Below, piece by piece: positions 10,435 through 27,422 of a DNA stretch of 64,000 nt (positions within the stretch are counted from its first letter, which is position 1; each line of letters begins with the position of its first letter). A program made the translations under genes and the position numbers. The stretch is from a bacterium. Its GTDB lineage: Bacteria; Patescibacteriota; Dojkabacteria; JAKAPS01; JAJZLI01. Under the pieces are notes generated by a model. That model did no database searches. It was not told the DNA's origin and saw nothing but the letters and a program-made list of their open reading frames with translations. The stretch is taken from the NCBI GenBank assembly GCA_021846685.1, contig JAJZWL010000002.1:9321-73320 (forward strand), given 5' to 3'.

Positions 10435-11532
10435 ATGGAGATATTACTCGATGCAAGAGAAGCTACTGCTAATACAGGAACAGGTAATGTTATTCGAAAT
10501 CTATATCCCAATATAATAAAAACTGACAAAATAAACTCTTATACTATTTTATATTCAAAAACAGATCCTTTTCCTAATCTGAAATGTAGAAAAATAAAAT
10601 CTCCTAAGGATAAGGGTGCAAGGTTTACGTATATATGGCAAATCTTTGGATTATCTCATTTTTTAAATAAAAATAAATTTAATGTTTTTTTTTCAGTAGA
10701 GAATTTTGTATACCCTATATACTTTAAAGGAACTACTATTATATCCATACAAGACTTGATTCCAATTGCAATTGATAATTACTATGACAAATATAAAGAT
10801 AAAATAAAATATAAAATCCAGCTTTTATCTTTAAAATTCATGAAGAAAAATGATTTAATTTTTACGGTATCTAATTTTTCTAAAAATGAAATCATAAAAT
10901 ATTTGAAGATTAATAAAAATAAAATATTTGTAATTTACAATGGCATAAATATAAAAAAAGCTCCCATACTTTCTACTAGGTATTTAATGAAAAATAATAT
11001 TAAAAAACCTTATATACTAGCAATTGGAGGAGCTGAAAAAAGAAAAAATAATAAGACATTAATTGAAGCGTTTAATGAATTAAAAATTAAAGAAAAATTA
11101 GTTATTATAGGAAAAATAAATAGGGAAGAAAGTGCATCTCAATTTGATACATTAAACATTAAAAATAACAAAAATATAATAACACCAGGAATAGTTGATC
11201 AAAAAACTCTTAGTGCCTTATATAAAAATGCATCTGTATTTGTATTCCTATCTTATTATGAAGGTTTCGGGCTACCTCCACTAGAAGCTTTAAGCTTTTC
11301 AATTCCAACCCTATGTGCTGACAAGACGTCATTACCAGAAATATATAAAGACACAGTCCTATATGCAGATCCATTTAACAAAAATGAAATAAAGGAAAAA
11401 TTAATAGAAATTATCTCTAATCAGACTATGAGAGAAAAATTGATAAAAAACTCGAAACAACTTATTAAAGAATTAACTTGGCAAAAATCAGCAGAAAATT
11501 TTATTCAAACATTAAATACTATTCAAAAATGA
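10435..11532 (+). CDS. Glycosyltransferase family 4
   Basis: 'EGFGLPPLEALSFSIP' EX7E motif; paralogue of 7137..8252. Confidence 0.8.
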   Translation: MEILLDAREATANTGTGNVIRNLYPNIIKTDKINSYTILYSKTDPFPNLKCRKIKSPKDKGARFTYIWQIFGLSHFLNKNKFNVFFSVENFVYPIYFKGTTIISIQDLIPIAIDNYYDKYKDKIKYKIQLLSLKFMKKNDLIFTVSNFSKNEIIKYLKINKNKIFVIYNGINIKKAPILSTRYLMKNNIKKPYILAIGGAEKRKNNKTLIEAFNELKIKEKLVIIGKINREESASQFDTLNIKNNKNIITPGIVDQKTLSALYKNASVFVFLSYYEGFGLPPLEALSFSIPTLCADKTSLPEIYKDTVLYADPFNKNEIKEKLIEIISNQTMREKLIKNSKQLIKELTWQKSAENFIQTLNTIQK

Positions 11533-12518
11533 TAGATATTAAAAAAAATGTAAATCTAAAAAATTATACAACATTTAAAATTGGCGGTAATGCCGAATTA
11601 TTTTCTGAAGCCTTTAGTAATGAAGATTTAATAGATTTAATTAAATATGCACATATAAAAAAAATTCCTACTACTATAATAGGAGGAGGAAGTAATATTC
11701 TTATTTCAGACAATGGAATAAAGGGGCTTACTATCATAAATAGAGCAAAATCAATAGAGATTATTGAAAACCCTAAAATAGACTTTGAAACACAAAATAA
11801 TAAATCACGTTATCAAGAAGGAGAATATTTTAAATTCTCAGATTTAGATGATGATGATTCAATTTATGATAAAGTCATAGTGAAAGTATCCTCTGGAGTA
11901 AATTTGACTTATCTTATCAATGAAACATTATCCAAAGGTATAACAGGGATACAATATTTTACAGCCATTCCAGGATCAATAGGTGGAGCTATTTTTAATA
12001 ATATACATGGAGGATCAAAACTTATTGGAAATCTCGTATATAAAGCACGATTAATAGATTTAAAAGGAAATATTATAAAAGTTGATCATTCTTTTTTTAA
12101 TTTTGACTATGATAAATCTATATTACATGAAAATAAATATTTTCTTCTAGATGTAGAATTAATATTATTTAAAGGAAATATAGACAAAGCAAAAAATACA
12201 TCCAGAGAATGGCTAAAAAGAAAAAGAGCAGTACAACCGATACTTCCTTCAGCAGGATCTATATTTAAAAATATAACAGATGAAGAAAAAGAGGTCATCT
12301 CATCTCCTGTCAATTCAGCAGGTTGGGTAATAGAACAAGCTGGGATGAAAGGATACTCAATTGGTGGAGCTAAAGTATATGATAAACATGCTAATTATAT
12401 TATTAACACAGGAACAGCTACTCAAAAAGACGTATCCTCTCTAATATTGGAAATTAAAGAAAAAGTATTAAAAAAGTTTAAGATCGAAATTAATGAAGAA
12501 ATAATATTTAAAGAATAA
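11529..12518 (+). CDS. murB: UDP-N-acetylenolpyruvoylglucosamine reductase MurB (start set at the ATG overlapping the upstream TGA; the ORF track's 11478 start lies inside the previous gene)
   Basis: FAD-binding motifs 'NYTTFKIGGNAELF' and 'GGGSNIL'; C-terminal 'SAGSIFKN'; ATGA overlap at 11529-11532. Confidence 0.8.
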   Translation: MIDIKKNVNLKNYTTFKIGGNAELFSEAFSNEDLIDLIKYAHIKKIPTTIIGGGSNILISDNGIKGLTIINRAKSIEIIENPKIDFETQNNKSRYQEGEYFKFSDLDDDDSIYDKVIVKVSSGVNLTYLINETLSKGITGIQYFTAIPGSIGGAIFNNIHGGSKLIGNLVYKARLIDLKGNIIKVDHSFFNFDYDKSILHENKYFLLDVELILFKGNIDKAKNTSREWLKRKRAVQPILPSAGSIFKNITDEEKEVISSPVNSAGWVIEQAGMKGYSIGGAKVYDKHANYIINTGTATQKDVSSLILEIKEKVLKKFKIEINEEIIFKE

Positions 12519-12605
12519 TAATTTTACTTTTCTGTATTCTATTACCTCAAATTCATTCTTACCCTCTTTATTTTTTCCCTTATACTCCAATTCTATTCCA
12601 TAGAA
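12453..12605. repeat. Direct repeat copy 1 (~150 bp): the authentic 3' end of murB plus a truncated 3' remnant of the LysW-like gene
   Basis: About 95% identical to 13558..13708 by direct alignment of the two stretches; differs at a few positions (aaaaaagttta/aaaaagttca; ttctgtattc/ttcttcttc; ccatagaa/ccacagaa). Confidence 0.85.
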
Positions 12606-12716
12606 TTGTTAAAATATAAATATAAATATAAATTTCAAATTCATAATCATAAAACTATAGTTTCATACCAAAATACTTATTAATTAGAAATATCTTTATT
12701 TAATATAATTATAATA

Positions 12717-12746
12717 TTGACAAGAATAATCTAGTATGTATATAAT
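12717..12746 (+). promoter_or_regulatory. Near-consensus sigma70 promoter of the toxin-antitoxin operon (TTGACA-N18-TATAAT), giving a leaderless or near-leaderless transcript
   Basis: TTGACA 12717-12722 and TATAAT 12741-12746. The spacer contains the 20-bp CTAGTATG palindromic motif, a likely operator. Confidence 0.5.
12725..12743. repeat. Motif copy L (AATAATCTAGTATGTATAT) overlapping the TA promoter
   Basis: Imperfect inverted partner at 13293..13313; related direct copy at 13499..13516. Confidence 0.6.
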
Positions 12747-13029
12747 AGATAATATGAAAACAGCAACTGTTAATTTTAAAACAGATATATCAATTAAAAT
12801 AAAAGCTCAAGAGGTTGCTCATAAATTGGGTATTCCATTAAGTAATTTACTAAATGCATACCTTTATGAGCTCATTAATACAGGTAGTGTACATTTTACT
12901 ACTACTGAACCAATGACTGAAAAAATGGAAAAAATTATTGCGCAGGCAGAGTTAGAAATGGCTTCAGGAAAAGTTAGTGGTCCATTTAAAACTGTTGAAG
13001 AGTTCTTTGCCCATCTTGATAATTTATAA
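12736..13029 (+). CDS. dinJ: Type II antitoxin, RelB/DinJ family (ribbon-helix-helix); likely true start is the second Met at 12754
   Basis: 'KTATVNFKTDISIKIKAQEVAHKLGIPLSNLLNAYLYELINTGSV' matches the DinJ/RelB N-terminal RHH pattern; stop overlaps the toxin start (TAATG). Confidence 0.6.
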   Translation: MYIIDNMKTATVNFKTDISIKIKAQEVAHKLGIPLSNLLNAYLYELINTGSVHFTTTEPMTEKMEKIIAQAELEMASGKVSGPFKTVEEFFAHLDNL

Positions 13030-13286
13030 TGAATATTCAGACTACAAAAAATTTCGATAAACAGTACTCAAAACTCAATATAAAAATTAAAAATCAGTTT
13101 AAAAAGAATATAGAATTATTTAAACTTAATCCATTTGACATAACTTTAAGAAATCACGCACTTAAAGGAAGGTACTTAGGATATAGAAGTATTGATATTA
13201 GCGGAGATGTTAGAGCATTATATACAGTCAAAGGAAATACTATAATTATATTTGCATTCATTGGTACACATAGTCAATTATATTAA
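13029..13286 (+). CDS. yafQ: Type II toxin, RelE/YafQ-family mRNA interferase
   Basis: 'HALKGRYLGYRSIDISGDVRALYTVKGNTIIIFAFIGTHSQLY' aligns with the E. coli YafQ C-terminus (HPLQGSWKGYRDAHVEPDWILIYKL...LRFERTGTHAALF). Confidence 0.65.
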   Translation: MNIQTTKNFDKQYSKLNIKIKNQFKKNIELFKLNPFDITLRNHALKGRYLGYRSIDISGDVRALYTVKGNTIIIFAFIGTHSQLY

Positions 13287-13292
13287 CACAAA

Positions 13293-13313
13293 ATAGACAT
13301 ACTAGGATTATCT
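13293..13313. repeat. Motif copy R (inverted): ATAGACATACTAGGATTATCT
   Basis: Its reverse complement AGATAATCCTAGTATGTCTAT matches 12725..12743 at about 18/20 positions with one indel; starts 7 nt after the toxin stop. Confidence 0.55.
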
Positions 13314-13498
13314 ATCTACAGAAATAAAGCTATTGATTTTTAGATATATACAAAAACCTTTTATCTCAATTAAAAAATATCCTATTAAATACAATTTAGA
13401 TTATTTAATGCTATCTAATCAATATCATGATGATGGCGTAACAATAAGAAATATATTTAAATAATAAATATATCTAAGAAATTAAAAGTACACTCTTA

Positions 13499-13530
13499 AC
13501 TAGTATGAGATATAAATTAATATAATGTGA
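13499..13530. repeat. Third, direct copy of the CTAGTATG motif plus a TATAAT box (partial duplicate of the TA promoter region)
   Basis: 'ACTAGTATGAGATATAAATTAATATAATG' compared with the promoter 'TCTAGTATGTATATAATAGATAATATG'. Confidence 0.45.
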
Positions 13531-13557
13531 TAAAATAGCGTACTAGAGTATCATTAT

Positions 13558-13708
13558 ATTAAAGAAAAAGTATTAAAAAGTTCAAGATCGAAATTAATGA
13601 AGAAATAATATTTAAAGAATAATAATTTTACTTTTCTTCTTCTATTACCTCAAATTCATTCTTACCCTCTTTATTTTTTCCCTTATACTCCAATTCTATT
13701 CCACAGAA
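13558..13708. repeat. Direct repeat copy 2 (~150 bp): a non-functional copy of the murB 3' end plus the authentic 3' end of the LysW-like gene
   Basis: See copy 1. Here the murB-derived part is a remnant and the LysW-like gene reads through intact. Confidence 0.85.
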
Positions 13709-13786
13709 AGGACACTCAACTGTCTCTCCTACAGAAACTTTTTCTATCTTAAATTCATTTTGACACTCAGTACATGTAATATCCAT
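13628..13786 (-). CDS. Small (52 aa) zinc-ribbon protein resembling LysW/ArgW amino-group carrier proteins; below the ORF-track length cutoff
   Basis: Hand translation of the minus strand gives MDITCTECQNEFKIEKVSVGETVECPFCGIELEYKGKNKEGKNEFEVIEEEK. The CxxC-x12-GE-x-V-x-C-x-x-CG-x-ELE pattern aligns with Thermus LysW (TCPECGAEINLENPELGELVVCEDCGAELEV) and the tail is acidic. Unlike canonical LysW (EDWGE), it ends in Lys. Confidence 0.5.
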   Translation of the reverse strand: MDITCTECQNEFKIEKVSVGETVECPFCGIELEYKGKNKEGKNEFEVIEEEK

Positions 13787-13894
13787 ATGCACCTATTATA
13801 CAATAAATATATCAAATATCAAATTATTAAAATTCAAAATACATGTTCTATCATTGCTTTAAGTAAAGTTACTATGTTACCATAATTAGCAATT

Positions 13895-16255
13895 ATGCAA
13901 GAAGGATATAATTTTAAAGAAATTGAAAAAAAATGGAGAGAGTTTTGGAAAAAAACAGAACTTTATAAAACTGATATATATACTAAAAAAAATAAGGCCT
14001 ATATATTAGATATGCTTCCATATCCTTCTGGAGCAGGATTACATGTTGGCCATCTTAAAGGTTATGTCGGTAGTGATGTTACCGCAAGATATAAAAGATT
14101 AAAAGGTTTCGAAATTTTACATCCAATGGGATGGGATGCATTTGGACTTCCAACAGAAAATTTTGCTATAAAAACTGGGAAAGATCCCTATACAGTAACT
14201 GAAGAAAATATTTCAGAATTTAAAAAAGAATTAATAAATGTAGGACTTAGTATTGACTGGGATAAAGAAATTAATACTTCACACAAAGATTACTATAAAT
14301 TCACACAATTATTATTTCTGAAATTATATAAAAAAGGATTAGCAGAGAAAAAAAAATCTCCCGTTAATTGGTGTCCTTCATGTAAAACCGTACTTTCAAA
14401 TGAACAATCAATTGGAGGAGTATGTGAAAGATGTGATAATCAAATTGAGATAAAAATTATCGATCAATGGTACTTCAAAATAACAGAATACGCTGAAAGA
14501 CTATTAAACGATATACCTTCACTTAAGTGGCCTGTATCAACAAAAAAAATGCAAGAAAAATGGATAGGGAAAAGTAAAGGTGCTGAAATTAGTTTCAAAA
14601 TAGAAAACAAAGATTTTAATCTTAATATATTTACTACAAAACCTGAAACTATATATGGAGTAACTTTTATAGTAATTGCTCCTGAAAATACATTAATAGA
14701 TAAAATCACAACAAAAGAATATCAAACAGATGTGAAAAATTATATAAAAAATATATCACCTCAATCTGAAATAGAGAGAAAAAAAGATGTGAAAACAGGA
14801 GTGTTTACAGGATCCTTTGCTATAAATCCAATAAATAATAATAAAATTCCAATCTGGATAGCAGACTATGTACTTATGGAATATGGAACAGGGGCAGTAA
14901 TGGGAGTTCCTGCTCATGATAAAAGAGATTTACTCTTCGCAACAAAACATGATCTTAAAGTTGAATTTGTATTAGATGAAAATATTAAAGATTATAAACA
15001 GTCAAAAATGATAATAGGGGAATATAAAGGGAAGTATGTAGAAGAGGTAAGAGATAATATAATTAAAGATATCAAAGGAGCTAAACACAAAACAGAATAT
15101 AAATTGAGAGATTGGTCAATATCTAGAGAAAGATTTTGGGGAGCACCAATTCCTATTATATACTGTGATCAATGTGGAGAAGTTCCCGTAAAAGAATCTG
15201 ATCTCCCAGTTATTTTGCCAGATGATATTACTAATTATAAGCCAACTGGAGTAGCCCCTTTAACAAAATCTGATCAATTTATGAATACAAAATGCCCTAA
15301 TTGTAATGGGGATGCAAAAAGAGAAGCAAAAACAATGGATACTTTTGTAGATTCATCTTGGTACTACTTAAGGTATATTGATCCTTATAATAAAAAAGAA
15401 TTTGGAAACAAAGACAGTCTTAATAAATGGATGCCAGTTGATTTATATATAGGAGGAAGTGAACATGCAGTTGGTCATTTACTATATTCAAGATTCATAA
15501 CTAAATTTTTATATGATGAAGGATATTTAAATTTTTCAGAACCTTTTGAACAATTAAAACATGTAGGATTAATATATGGAGAAGATAAAAGAAAAATGAG
15601 CAAAAGGTGGGGAAATGTTATTACTGCTAAATTTGTATTAGATGAATATGGAGCAGATGTAACAAGGTTATATGAAATGTTTATGGAACCATTTGAACAA
15701 TATGCGTTTTGGAATACAAATGCTATTATAGGTGTCAAAAGATTTATTAACAGGGTATGGAAACTTCAATACATAATATCTAAAAAAGAACATCCAGAAG
15801 AAACAATAGCAACGAATAAACTAATTCAAAAAGTAGATGAATATATTAAAAAAGGAAAATATAATCTATCAGTTAGTGAATATATGAAATATATGAATAA
15901 AATAGAAGAGCTAGGATCAATTACAAAAGAAAATTTTGAGAAATTTTTAATTACACTTTCACCTTATGCACCATTCATTTCTGAAGAATTATTCTCCATA
16001 TTAGGACACAATGAAAGTATACATCTATCTTCATGGCCTCAAGTTCAAAATAACTCCATAAAGGAAACTCATATAACATTACCAGTACAGATAAATGGTA
16101 AATTAAGAGGAACAATTTATATAGAAATAGACTCCAGTGAAAAAACAGTATTAGAAAAAATAAATAAGGATGATAAGTTATCACAAAAAATTGATCTTGA
16201 GAATATAAAAAAAGTTATTTATGTAAAAAATAAAATTATAAATATACTTAATTAA
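13895..16255 (+). CDS. leuS: Leucyl-tRNA synthetase
   Basis: HVGH (HIGH) motif, editing domain, 'KMSKRWGN' (KMSKS) motif, 786 aa. Confidence 0.95.
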   Translation: MQEGYNFKEIEKKWREFWKKTELYKTDIYTKKNKAYILDMLPYPSGAGLHVGHLKGYVGSDVTARYKRLKGFEILHPMGWDAFGLPTENFAIKTGKDPYTVTEENISEFKKELINVGLSIDWDKEINTSHKDYYKFTQLLFLKLYKKGLAEKKKSPVNWCPSCKTVLSNEQSIGGVCERCDNQIEIKIIDQWYFKITEYAERLLNDIPSLKWPVSTKKMQEKWIGKSKGAEISFKIENKDFNLNIFTTKPETIYGVTFIVIAPENTLIDKITTKEYQTDVKNYIKNISPQSEIERKKDVKTGVFTGSFAINPINNNKIPIWIADYVLMEYGTGAVMGVPAHDKRDLLFATKHDLKVEFVLDENIKDYKQSKMIIGEYKGKYVEEVRDNIIKDIKGAKHKTEYKLRDWSISRERFWGAPIPIIYCDQCGEVPVKESDLPVILPDDITNYKPTGVAPLTKSDQFMNTKCPNCNGDAKREAKTMDTFVDSSWYYLRYIDPYNKKEFGNKDSLNKWMPVDLYIGGSEHAVGHLLYSRFITKFLYDEGYLNFSEPFEQLKHVGLIYGEDKRKMSKRWGNVITAKFVLDEYGADVTRLYEMFMEPFEQYAFWNTNAIIGVKRFINRVWKLQYIISKKEHPEETIATNKLIQKVDEYIKKGKYNLSVSEYMKYMNKIEELGSITKENFEKFLITLSPYAPFISEELFSILGHNESIHLSSWPQVQNNSIKETHITLPVQINGKLRGTIYIEIDSSEKTVLEKINKDDKLSQKIDLENIKKVIYVKNKIINILN

Positions 16256-16257
16256 TT

Positions 16258-17193
16258 ATGGACAATTCCGAAAAAAAAGGTATATGGCTATATGAAGATA
16301 TTTATTCTTATAAAATCAAAGGTGAAAATAGAATAAGTATTGGAGAAGGAAATACCCAACTAGAAAGATTAAAGTTCTTAGAAATAGCATTAGGGATCCC
16401 TGTTATATATGCAAAAAGAGAAGATAAAAATCCTACAGGATCAGCTAAAGATAGATCCACTGCTTTCTTTTTTTCTTATCTTAAATCTAATAGAATAAAT
16501 GAAGTTGTAATTCCGTCTTCTGGTAATACAGCAATATCTGCAGCATATTATGGAAAGATAACAGGGATTAAATTATATTTATTTATATCAGAAAATTTTT
16601 CAATTATAAAAAACCAAAGATTAAATAAAGCTTTAAAAAACAATAAAAATATAGAAATTATTAAATCAAAAAGACCTTTATCTGATGCCATTAAATATGC
16701 AAAAGAAAATCATATAGAACTATTTAGAGGATCTACCTCACAAATAGCAATTGAAGGATATAAAAGCTTAGGAGAAGAATTATCATTAATAAGAGCAGAT
16801 GCTCTGTTTATCCCTATAAGTAGTGGAACTACAATAGAAGGAATATCAAAAAGATTAAATAAAAATTGCCACATACATATAGTACAGACATCAAAAATTA
16901 ATACTATCTCAAGATTATTTGATACTAATTTTAAATCAGAGAATGTCACCCTAGCAGACTCAATAGTAGCTAGAGTTACTGAAAGAAAAAAAGCTATTGA
17001 AGACATAATAAATAAAACTAAAGGGTGGGGTTGGACAGTGGAAAATACAGAGATTCAAGAATGTCATGATTTATTAATAAAAAATGGAATAAATACATCT
17101 TATGACTCCAGTATCACTATTGCAGCTCTAATGAAGGCAATAAAAAAGGGATATAAATTTAAAAAAGTTATATTAGTTTTCACAGGAAAATGA
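16258..17193 (+). CDS. Threonine synthase-family PLP-dependent enzyme (fold type II), short form
   Basis: 'GEGNTQL', catalytic-lysine motif 'NPTGSAKDR', 'SSGNTAISAAYYG', and 'IPISSGTT' mirroring ThrC motifs. 311 aa, shorter than typical ThrC. Confidence 0.65.
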   Translation: MDNSEKKGIWLYEDIYSYKIKGENRISIGEGNTQLERLKFLEIALGIPVIYAKREDKNPTGSAKDRSTAFFFSYLKSNRINEVVIPSSGNTAISAAYYGKITGIKLYLFISENFSIIKNQRLNKALKNNKNIEIIKSKRPLSDAIKYAKENHIELFRGSTSQIAIEGYKSLGEELSLIRADALFIPISSGTTIEGISKRLNKNCHIHIVQTSKINTISRLFDTNFKSENVTLADSIVARVTERKKAIEDIINKTKGWGWTVENTEIQECHDLLIKNGINTSYDSSITIAALMKAIKKGYKFKKVILVFTGK

Positions 17194-18479
17194 ATAACAT
17201 AGATAATCTATTAGGAAATAATAATATAATATATGTCACAAATGACCCTGAAAGATCTTTAGGTTTAGAAAAAATTACAAAACATTTTTACACTCTATGC
17301 ATAGATGATTCATATATATTAAATTTTTTAAATAATTTTTATTCTTTAAAAAAAAATTTTCCAAACATAGATATATTTAGAAATTCCAATAAATTATTAC
17401 AAGAAGAATCAGTAAAACAATACCTATCTTCTATTAAGAATCCTTCGTTTATGTTTTTTAAAATAGCTCCAAATATTGAAATAGAATTAAAAAATAAAAA
17501 AATTTTAAACACACACTCAGATCTAAATAGAAAATATGAAAACAAAATAATGATTAGTAATATTTTCAAAGATATAGTACCGCCAACAAAAATTATTAAT
17601 TTAAAAATAGATACATACAATTCAATTTCAAATTTTCTGGGAAAGGAGTTTGTAATACAATTTTCTAGAGGACAAAGTGGAAATACCACATTTTTCATTG
17701 ATAATAAAGATCAATTTGAAAAATTACAAGAAAAATATCCTCTAAGAATAGCAAAAGCTGTAAAAAAAATATCCGGTGAATACTTCACGATAAATGGAGT
17801 TATCACAGAAAATGATATTCTAATAGGAAATCTTTCAAAACAAATTACAGGAATAAAAGAATTAACAGCCTTTAAAGGAGGTACTGTAGGAAATGAATGG
17901 ATTACAGGATTAACAATAAAACAAAAAGATATGTTTATTGATAAAATGCAATATATTGGTAAAAAAATGAAAAATGATGGTTATAGAGGTATGTTTGGTG
18001 CAGATTTTGTTTTTGATTCACAAAATATTTTTTTAATAGAGGTAAATGCTAGAGAAAATGCATCTATACCTACATATACAAAAATACAAATTAATGAGAA
18101 TATACTACCTTTTAAATTAATACATATACTTGATTTTCTAAAGATATCATACAAAATAGATTCTACAAAAATTAATAATCAAATATATGAAGATTATAAT
18201 TACAGACAAATAATAATAAGAAATATTCAATCTCACCCTGTAAAAGCAAATACATTTTTAAATGGAGTATATTCTTCTAATTTAGATAAGATTAGAGAAG
18301 GTTATGATATTGATTCATTAAAAAATAATGATTATTTAATTCTCACTTCATATTCAAATGTAAATCCTAATATAGAAATATCTAAAATACAATCAAAAAG
18401 TAGTATAGATAATAATTTTATTAATCAAACTTTAATCAAATTATTGCAAAATCCAGGTGAAGATAATATAATCCTTTAA
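17190..18479 (+). CDS. ATP-grasp domain protein with extra N- and C-terminal regions; translationally coupled to the ThrC-like gene
   Basis: Central ATP-grasp motif '...YRGMFGADFVFDSQNIFLIEVNARENAS...'; ATGA overlap at 17190; about 200 aa N-terminal and about 140 aa C-terminal regions not recognised. Confidence 0.5.
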   Translation: MNNIDNLLGNNNIIYVTNDPERSLGLEKITKHFYTLCIDDSYILNFLNNFYSLKKNFPNIDIFRNSNKLLQEESVKQYLSSIKNPSFMFFKIAPNIEIELKNKKILNTHSDLNRKYENKIMISNIFKDIVPPTKIINLKIDTYNSISNFLGKEFVIQFSRGQSGNTTFFIDNKDQFEKLQEKYPLRIAKAVKKISGEYFTINGVITENDILIGNLSKQITGIKELTAFKGGTVGNEWITGLTIKQKDMFIDKMQYIGKKMKNDGYRGMFGADFVFDSQNIFLIEVNARENASIPTYTKIQINENILPFKLIHILDFLKISYKIDSTKINNQIYEDYNYRQIIIRNIQSHPVKANTFLNGVYSSNLDKIREGYDIDSLKNNDYLILTSYSNVNPNIEISKIQSKSSIDNNFINQTLIKLLQNPGEDNIIL

Positions 18480-26325: not shown

Positions 26326-26721
26326 TTAAACTAGACTTTCATCAACTATACTTTTTAATGTATTTGTCACTTCTTCAAATAATGCCAATGGTAGATCTGT
26401 TGTCATTTTAAAAATATTTTTAATAGCATCTGGAAGAAGAGCAGATACTATTATTTTACTATTATTTTCATACACATTTATTTTACAAGGAAGAAATAAT
26501 CCCACCTCTTTAGAGATAGAAAGTATTTCATGAGCACTCTTGGCATTACATAATTCTATGATTACATAGTTTTCCATTTCAAAGTTTTTTGAATTTAGGG
26601 TTGATTTAATATCATGAATAGCAAGAACCTTGAATCCTTTTTGAGGTATTATATCTTTGATTTTTTCTACAGTTTTAAAAAAACTATTATTTGATTCTTT
26701 TGTATAAATATAATTATCCAT
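26326..26721 (-). CDS. DUF302-domain protein
   Basis: 131 aa; 'GFKVLAIHDIKSTLNSKNFEMENYVIIELCNAKSAHEIL...LFLPCKINVY' fits the DUF302 pattern. Confidence 0.55.
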   Translation of the reverse strand: MDNYIYTKESNNSFFKTVEKIKDIIPQKGFKVLAIHDIKSTLNSKNFEMENYVIIELCNAKSAHEILSISKEVGLFLPCKINVYENNSKIIVSALLPDAIKNIFKMTTDLPLALFEEVTNTLKSIVDESLV

Positions 26722-26774
26722 ATAACTTAATAATACCAGATTAATTAATATATATCACGTTAAATGATATTAAA

Positions 26775-27422
26775 TTATTTAATATCATTACTTTTTATAA
26801 AATTATTGTAAGACTTTTTCTCTTTCTCTGCCCAATCTTTATCTTTTAATCTTTCCATAAAAGGATCTATATCCCAATAATAATACTTATCTTTTCCTAT
26901 ATTTTTTAAAAATTCCTTTCTATAGTCAGAAACCTTCATGTATTCTTTAGCAGGAGAACCCATTACTATAGTATTCGGGAGTACATCTTTAGTAACTAAA
27001 GAACCTGCACCTATTACAGATTTACTTCCAATAGTCACTCCTGGCATAATTATACACTTAGCCCCTATATATGCCCCCTCCTTAATAATAACCTTGCCAA
27101 ATCTTACAGGATCAGAATACAAATTATTCATTGAACTATCATGAACTAATATTCTAGTCCCATAAGCTATAGTTACATTATTTTCAATTTTCAAAAATTC
27201 TGGGTAAATTTCTTCAATTTCAACATGATCTAAAAAAACATCTTCTCCTATATCAAATCCTAATCCTCTTAATCTATTGATAGTTCTCTCCATATCCTCA
27301 TTCACACCTATTTCCCAAAGAACCTTATAATAAATTTTTTTTATAAACCTCCAAAATATATTCATATAATATATTATAATACAAGAATATAATAAAAAGT
27401 ATAGATTATATAAGATATTCAT
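26775..27422 (-). CDS. Hexapeptide-repeat (LbH) acetyltransferase, maltose/galactoside O-acetyltransferase-like; true start probably at an internal Met
   Basis: Left-handed beta-helix repeats 'GAYIGAKCIIMPGVTIGSKSVIGAGSLVTKDV...MGSPAKE'. Only 26 bp separate its annotated start from the divergent 27449 start, so the real start is likely MERTINRL or MNIFWRF. Confidence 0.65.
   Translation of the reverse strand: MNILYNLYFLLYSCIIIYYMNIFWRFIKKIYYKVLWEIGVNEDMERTINRLRGLGFDIGEDVFLDHVEIEEIYPEFLKIENNVTIAYGTRILVHDSSMNNLYSDPVRFGKVIIKEGAYIGAKCIIMPGVTIGSKSVIGAGSLVTKDVLPNTIVMGSPAKEYMKVSDYRKEFLKNIGKDKYYYWDIDPFMERLKDKDWAEKEKKSYNNFIKSNDIK

Follow-up and report, generated by a model that had tools for sequence, protein, structure and literature searches.

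How a foreign operon came to stand between two genes whose stop codons are separated by only 5 nucleotides (nt), with neither gene damaged, is the question raised by a locus in contig JAJZWL010000002.1 (assembly GCA_021846685.1) of a bacterium of the Dojkabacteria. The window, i.e. the whole stretch of 64,000 nt that was analysed, carries a small toxin-antitoxin (TA) operon of the RelB/DinJ-YafQ type between murB and a convergent gene for a LysW-like zinc ribbon, and the same 153-base-pair (bp) junction segment stands on both sides of the inserted DNA, which is the topology of an insertion-duplication. The locus was probably formed by the non-site-specific insertion of a foreign TA-bearing fragment with duplication of the target, and the structure would have been kept since both genes survive and the TA pair penalises its own pop-out. 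The evidence is given by the comparison of the two repeat copies, of the corresponding junction in sister species and of a donor-like locus in another bacterium.

The duplicated junction

The two repeat copies, of 153 and 151 nt, were 96.7% identical on alignment (blastn E ~1e-67), which bears out the original prediction of direct repeats of ~150 bp with ~95% identity. The copies differ at five sites, three substitutions and two single-base indels, and the longest stretch identical between them is 63 nt. In the self-comparison of the whole 64-kb window this was the sole repeat of comparable size, and the local alignment of the flanks past both limits of the repeat was not above that of shuffled sequences. 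Each copy consists of the last 66 nt of murB, the 5-nt spacer and the last 81 nt of the convergent LysW-like gene. It had been proposed that copy 1 serves to finish murB, that copy 2 does so for the LysW-like gene, and that a dead LysW remnant is left in copy 1; the gene calls and the frameshifts confirmed this. The LysW-like gene is also called as 52 amino acids (aa) in public assemblies. The coordinates of the features are presented in Table 1.

The state of the junction before the insertion was deduced from three sister species, represented by loci L010-L015, L016 and L017, which were found in a protein database through MurB relatives with 73-77% identity. The search of GTDB species genomes with MurB resulted only in 31%-identical relatives. 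The sister species share the order of murB, the LysW-like gene and leuS, with ~77% DNA identity to the window. Their collinearity with the window, including that of murB itself, ends at 12512-12520 and restarts at 13628, with 1,107 nt between these points in the window. In all three species murB is convergent on the LysW-like gene, and both the TA pair and the duplication are absent from the junction, as expected if an insertion had duplicated its target. A duplicated junction lacking the TA module, which had been named as the sign of an old, fixed duplication, was not found in the three sister species. The junction itself was a 134-nt spacer in L010-L015, and in L016 (5045-5248, minus strand) and L017 (3468-3692, minus strand) it was occupied by an open reading frame (ORF) of 67 or 74 aa with no Pfam family. 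As the junctions of the sister species differ and lack the TA pair, the TA pair is an insertion at a junction that varies between species.

Both repeat copies carry lineage-specific bases that were not found in the three sister species, therefore the duplication arose inside this lineage. Four of the five differences between the copies could be polarised against the sister species. All four were derived and lay in the non-functional halves: the 1-nt deletion which frameshifts the murB remnant of copy 2, and the 1-nt insertion which frameshifts the LysW remnant of copy 1 together with two substitutions in the same remnant. The fifth, at a synonymous site in the murB end, was not polarisable. 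The insertion had been described as recent, and this holds in relative terms only, the redundant remnants having already acquired two frameshifts and two to three substitutions.

The same arrangement was found in ~8 long contigs of independent assemblies, and the window is identical to a 119-kb ENA contig. Both junctions are covered by a Logan contig, and the right-hand junction only (insert into copy 2) by a JGI contig. The longest identity between the copies, 63 nt, is below the k of 141 implied by the contig names, therefore a mis-join at the repeat is unlikely. An assembly artefact, in which the chromosome has an empty junction and the insert belongs to a separate small circle or strain variant mis-threaded through the repeat, is extremely improbable. 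The short contigs L002 and L003 do break within the repeat, as assemblers do at repeats. However, besides the five differences and the short identical stretches, the intact murB end in copy 1 is joined to the degenerate LysW end within 54 nt, the independent assemblies agree on the path, and the frameshifts are confined to the redundant halves, as expected of real evolution in place.

Table 1. Positions of the features at the murB/LysW-like junction (window coordinates; "copy" refers to the direct repeats unless stated otherwise).
Feature	Position	Strand	Remarks
murB (UDP-N-acetylenolpyruvoylglucosamine reductase), intact	11529-12518	+	Pfam MurB_C 1.9e-28, FAD_binding_4; last 66 nt inside copy 1
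Direct repeat copy 1	12453-12605		Functional murB 3' end 12453-12518, 5-nt spacer, dead LysW-like 3' remnant 12524-12605
Foreign insert, 952 nt	12606-13557	+	Absent from sister species; 12606-12686 and 12711-13356 match L087
Truncated 3' fragment (26 codons including stop) of foreign 67-aa ORF, passenger pseudogene	12606-12683	+	In frame with the end of L087 ORF 4379-4582
Sigma-70-type promoter of TA operon, TTGACA-N18-TATAAT	12717-12746	+	12/12 consensus matches
Palindromic operator AATCTAGTATGTATATAATAGAT, predicted, overlapping -10 box	12728-12750	+	Contains CTAGTATG copy 1; family-wide consensus AATCTAnTGTATATACAnTAGATT
CTAGTATG copies	12731-12738; 13298-13305; 13500-13507	+; -; +	
RelB/DinJ-family antitoxin, predicted, 91 aa	12754-13029	+	Pfam RelB 27.4 bits (cut-off 22.4); NCBIfam RelB_DinJ E 1.1e-11
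YafQ-type RelE-superfamily toxin, predicted, 85 aa	13029-13286	+	Pfam YafQ_toxin 40.9 bits (cut-off 30); NCBIfam RelE_StbE 46.1 (cut-off 27.9)
Non-coding tail of insert, 271 nt	13287-13557	+	13287-13356 homologous to donor-like locus
Direct repeat copy 2	13558-13708		Dead murB 3' remnant 13558-13622, 5-nt spacer, functional LysW-like 3' end 13628-13708
LysW-like zinc-ribbon gene, 52 aa, intact	13628-13786	-	Pfam Zn_ribbon_LysW 3.7e-8; finishes in copy 2
Promoter-like site of LysW-like gene	13822-13795	-	Promoter scan, 11/12 matches

The donor-like locus and the TA pair

The best relative of the toxin, P0122, has 94% protein identity and is encoded in loci L087/L097 of NCBI assembly GCA_027424935.1. 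The MurB of this bacterium is only 64% identical to that of the window; the two were taken to be separate lineages at the genus level, both from one study. The homology to L087 begins at 12606, the first base beyond copy 1, with an overlap of at most 2 nt (AA). The DNA identity was 90% between window 12606-12686 and L087 4505-4585 and, after an indel, 92.6% between window 12711-13356 and L087 4685-5329, which comprise the TA operon and adjoining non-coding DNA. Such identity to a locus of a bacterium with so distant a MurB marks the TA pair as foreign. Upstream of its TA pair L087 has a 67-aa ORF, and the stub next to copy 1 corresponds to the final 26 codons of this ORF, 6 of 25 residues being different. 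Since the left end of the insert falls within these codons, the insert is an arbitrary chunk of foreign chromosome without element-defined ends. In the loci closest to the insert (L087-L092, L093-L096) the TA pair had neither murB nor LysW sequence as a neighbour.

As described in the original prediction, the insert holds a consensus promoter, a dinJ/yafQ-type pair, recognised by profiles, and ~270 bp of non-coding DNA; its determined length was 952 nt. No ORFs other than the TA pair and the stub were detected in it. With NCBIfam RelB_DinJ the antitoxin scored 44.8 bits, slightly below the cut-off of 45.65, and the toxin fell short of the narrower TIGR00053 YafQ model (44.6 bits vs 87.25). The toxin start overlaps the antitoxin stop by 1 nt, at 13029, in an antitoxin-first bicistronic operon. 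Based on profiles, operon layout and operator, the pair is predicted to be an intact type II RelB/DinJ-YafQ module of the RelE superfamily. In comparison with L087, the antitoxin has 6 synonymous and 3 non-synonymous codon differences and the toxin 9 and 5, respectively; synonymous changes outnumber the non-synonymous ones, which suggests that the TA genes remain under selection.

The pair resembles the known RelB/DinJ-YafQ systems, including HP0894/HP0895 of H. pylori, in its two small overlapping genes, the antitoxin being first, and in the palindromic operator over the promoter. The closest solved structures of the toxin are HP0894-type toxins, with which its C-terminal GTHSQLY motif aligns; for the antitoxin no solved relative was found. 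In contrast to these systems, the pair of the window is divergent, with an apparently leaderless mRNA and a Patescibacteria-type host.

The regulatory region was compared with homologous TA loci from JGI metagenomes, 69 in total, of which ~45 had flanks usable for a survey of repeats. In ~40 loci the promoter consists of TTGACA, 4-5 nt, the palindrome AATCTAnTGTATATACAnTAGATT holding the -10 box, and ATG 7 nt further. The start codon 7 nt past the -10 box implies a leaderless antitoxin mRNA. The promoter and operator (12717-12756) are near base-for-base identical across these loci, and the proteins encoded there are 60-85% identical. The window has exactly three occurrences of the 8-mer CTAGTATG, where 1.8 would be expected, and all of them fall in the insert. 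A ~20-bp motif had been claimed at these three places; the 8-mer was retained in all of them, whereas the wider similarity was marginal for the inverted copy (17/18 with one gap, P ~0.02) and not significant for the third (P ~0.12). CTAGTATG is predicted to belong to a genuine antitoxin operator. The further suggestion that this operator was reused as a recombination site is supported in its first half, by the occurrence of the palindrome in ~40 loci, but not in the second: the copies lie 50-125 nt from the junctions, at least 125 nt away from the left one and 50 nt from the right one, and the post-toxin copy is not conserved in L087.

A 946-nt contig, L003 (JGI 3300045129, Ga0495008_030713), was 99.8% identical to window 12719-13611. 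Its positions 1-53 are unrelated to the window; the divergence falls exactly at the -35 box, and the flank has a partial promoter look-alike, GGACAAGACTAGT. Either structural variation or a chimeric end of the contig could account for the unrelated start. The sample of L003 also contains an 89%-identical TA variant, L096.

The surroundings of the donor-like locus (L097 3052-10853) comprise an ABC transporter, a RimK-type ATP-grasp gene of 596 aa and several small ORFs; repeated sequences stand upstream of some of the latter. A 155-aa copy of the ATP-grasp C-terminus was also present (75% DNA identity over 646 nt). A possible role of the region is peptide modification, as a graspetide-like cluster in which there are several precursor genes. 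The duplication of the RimK 3' end was considered as an insertion scar and rejected, being more likely an old partial paralogue in a cluster of ATP-grasp, ABC-transporter and small-ORF genes.

Homologous TA loci and flanking repeats

Across ~60 other loci the DNA similarity to the window extends from ~12713-12717, at the -35 box, to 13282-13286, at the toxin stop, and the ends of the insert are not conserved. One locus, L073 (2745-3533, Ga0210050_1003623), is a true and independent parallel to the window. Its insert of 611 nt, consisting of the promoter and a RelB/YafQ pair, lies between 90-nt direct repeats with 88% identity; a convergent GNAT acetyltransferase gene has copy 2 as its 3' end, and copy 1 is a dead remnant of that end. 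In L069 a flanking repeat of 23-26 nt was detected, which also precedes the promoter of the next operon. The locus L061 was examined as a second long target duplication and was rejected, as its repeats proved to be copies of the array element described below. No description of long target duplications around TA units was found in the literature.

In many TA loci the toxin stop is followed by an element of ~75 nt, (C)AGTTGCGATAGC..ACGGTGGCCCTCCAA..GCTTATGCTTAAAC with a terminator hairpin, which may also be written as (C)AGTTGCGATAGCnnCTACGGTGGCCCTCCAA then GCTTATGCTTAAAC. It was located in L047 (251-330, 866-945 and 1386-1465), L061 (151, 779 and 1479), L024 (4277) and L046 (3114), and was present also in L054 (6 copies), L031, L057 and L023, its copies separating unrelated small accessory genes. 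The adjacent tRNA-Lys genes of L024, L028, L033, L043, L046 and L053 end, CCA included, in the same sequence as its core, GGCCCTCCA. The arrays may have resulted from tandem site-specific integration at tRNA-Lys, or may be cassette arrays unlike integrons. The element folds inconsistently, unlike attC, and has the polarity GTT...AAC rather than AAC...GTT. With nhmmer no significant match to it was obtained in the window. The segment 13297-13350 weakly resembles the right half of one copy (P ~0.005 before correction for three tests), which is a hint only.

Mode of insertion, alternatives and neighbouring features

According to the favoured reading, a 952-bp fragment of another Patescibacteria-type chromosome would have entered the tail-to-tail junction of murB and the LysW-like gene, carrying the relB/dinJ-yafQ operon as a self-contained unit, complete with promoter and operator, preceded by the 3' stub of a small ORF and followed by non-coding DNA. 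The joining would have been non-site-specific. It could have proceeded by a pair of illegitimate joins at a distance of 153 bp, made either on sister duplexes or at a break with widely staggered ends, or else by recombination, in a single crossover, with a circular intermediate into which the junction had already been taken. Because the stop codons are just 5 nt apart, only a duplicative insertion spares both genes. Survival would have acted as a selection filter, murB ending in copy 1 and the LysW-like gene in copy 2, with the spare ends left to decay. RecA recombination between the 153-bp repeats would precisely excise the insert, after which, as known from TA biology, the antitoxin, being labile, would be gone before the stable YafQ-type mRNA interferase, to the detriment of the cell. 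The TA pair would stabilise the structure because its deletion by repeat recombination exposes the cell to the longer-lived toxin. In the resident state the antitoxin or the TA complex would repress the operon through the palindromic operator over the -10 box. The locus shares with illegitimate, non-site-specific recombination the target segment duplicated around foreign DNA, the arbitrary left breakpoint in the donor and the microhomology of at most 2 nt at the readable junction; it differs in being a natural case in an uncultured lineage.

Several points weigh against this explanation. About 40 of the ~45 homologous loci with usable flanks have no flanking duplication, so that only few cases speak for its recurrence. 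With a divergence of ~7%, L087 is related to the donor but is not the donor itself. For the right-hand ~190 nt of the insert (13367-13557) no source was identified. Neither an empty-site allele nor a circular form was found within the species, all ~8 long contigs having the insert.

No Rfam family was found in 12300-14000 at E up to 1. The insert had no matches in plasmid and phage collections, nor the toxin in IMG/VR. No integrase or transposase ORF lies between the repeats; most of the remaining 64-kb window was not scanned against protein families. A terminal inverted repeat around the TA unit was not significant in the window (z = 1.2 vs shuffles), and such repeats were not seen as a feature of the TA family across ~45 loci. 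In contrast to insertion sequences and transposons, the insert has no transposase, no terminal inverted repeats and no short fixed target duplication; the duplication of 153 bp does not fit a transposase target-site duplication, as was noted in the original prediction. The TA cassettes of integrons and superintegrons are similar in being small self-promoted units found in many contexts, and relatives of the pair occur elsewhere in arrays with a repeated element. However, no attC-like site was detected in the window (no structured repeat in 12300-14000, no Rfam match and no integron integrase seen, the search being made without an attC-specific model), and the array element is lacking there. 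The insert tail also matched the leuS end of sister species over 52 nt; the match is AT-rich, with 83% identity and 3 gaps, and was judged to be due to chance.

The chief competing explanation is the decay of an integrative element like e14 in icd, with which the repeat architecture agrees. The prophage e14 is flanked by icd, which runs into the prophage, and by the C-terminal pseudogene icdC (PMC13626634). In this case a larger element with an integrase would have brought a murB/LysW junction along, just as an alternative icd 3' end is carried by e14 and phage 21, and would later have been deleted down to the TA pair, the repeats being attL and attR. Direct repeats of a gene 3' end around integrated DNA, where one copy completes the gene and the other is a remnant, are the classic signature of e14, phage 21 and tRNA-targeting islands (PMC13626634). 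The TA family is found elsewhere beside tRNA-Lys genes, in arrays with units ending in the last 10-11 nt of the tRNA, which suggests recombinase traffic there. On the other hand, the insert has no integrase in or adjoining it, no identifiable att core and no relatives among phages, plasmids or IMG/VR sequences, the array-type element was absent from the window by nhmmer, and the repeat spans two convergent gene ends. A site-specific integrative element would be expected to carry its target copy wherever it occurs, which is not the case in the closest relatives of the insert: the truncated ORF that adjoins copy 1 is an ordinary neighbour of the TA pair in L087, where no copy of murB or LysW is present. 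Such an origin was regarded as unlikely. It is distinctly improbable that the promoter-to-stop unit is itself a mobile cassette, whose mechanism gives long and variable target duplications of ~25-150 bp. A cassette-like mobile unit had been part of the original prediction, and the sharp conservation from the -35 box to the stop across many unrelated contexts, the insert of L073, which is almost exactly this unit within its 90-nt duplication, and the 23-26-nt repeat of L069 are in line with it. But the insert of the window contains 111 nt and 271 nt of additional donor DNA, with its left end inside the truncated foreign ORF, therefore the edges of the unit, the only part conserved across loci, are not recombining ends. 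Moreover, flanking repeats are lacking at most loci, as given above, that of L069 stands ahead of the next operon's promoter too, and sharp limits of conservation are expected of any selected operon amid neutral DNA. An older tandem duplication of the junction, between whose copies the TA fragment landed later by chance, would give an identical end state. It is very improbable, since the insertion must have struck the boundary of the copies exactly, no sister species or contig has the duplication without the TA pair, and a bare tandem repeat of 153 bp would soon be lost.

The insertion of a foreign fragment with target duplication, as favoured here, makes the locus a further example of what is already known, both as a RelB/YafQ module and as a scar left by horizontal transfer through insertion-duplication, with an unusually long duplication and unusually clear provenance. 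The target, the empty site of the sister species, the donor-like locus and the exact left breakpoint are all visible, which gives a clean and datable footprint of horizontal transfer between uncultured small-genome bacteria. It shows an insertion entering a genome with 5 nt between genes, neither being damaged, and would illustrate how a TA pair can protect the insertion that carries it. Taken by itself, the locus is a fairly ordinary scar in which known processes are well documented; if long duplicative insertions were common in the group, they would bear on gene acquisition by these bacteria. A broader proposal, with the window and L073 as two footprints, is that Patescibacteria-type bacteria take up foreign DNA and fix it by a duplicative, homology-independent pathway which copies ~90-150 bp of the target, TA operons being preferentially kept as they punish pop-out. 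This is quite unlikely; if true, the pathway would allow insertions into tightly packed genomes without killing the flanking genes.

The LysW-like protein is a carrier-type zinc ribbon with an acidic C-terminal tail, EVIEEEK. Genes for a PALP-family enzyme (16258-17193) and an ATP-grasp_3 protein (17190-18479) are located nearby, with leuS between, and this order is conserved in all sister species. Together with the zinc ribbon they could make up, in this reduced genome, a system of the amino-group carrier protein type. Elsewhere in the window a 27-nt near-perfect palindrome (96%) was detected at 26763-26789, in the gap between the minus-strand ORFs 26326-26721 and 26775-27422, and is the only self-match besides the 153-nt repeat.

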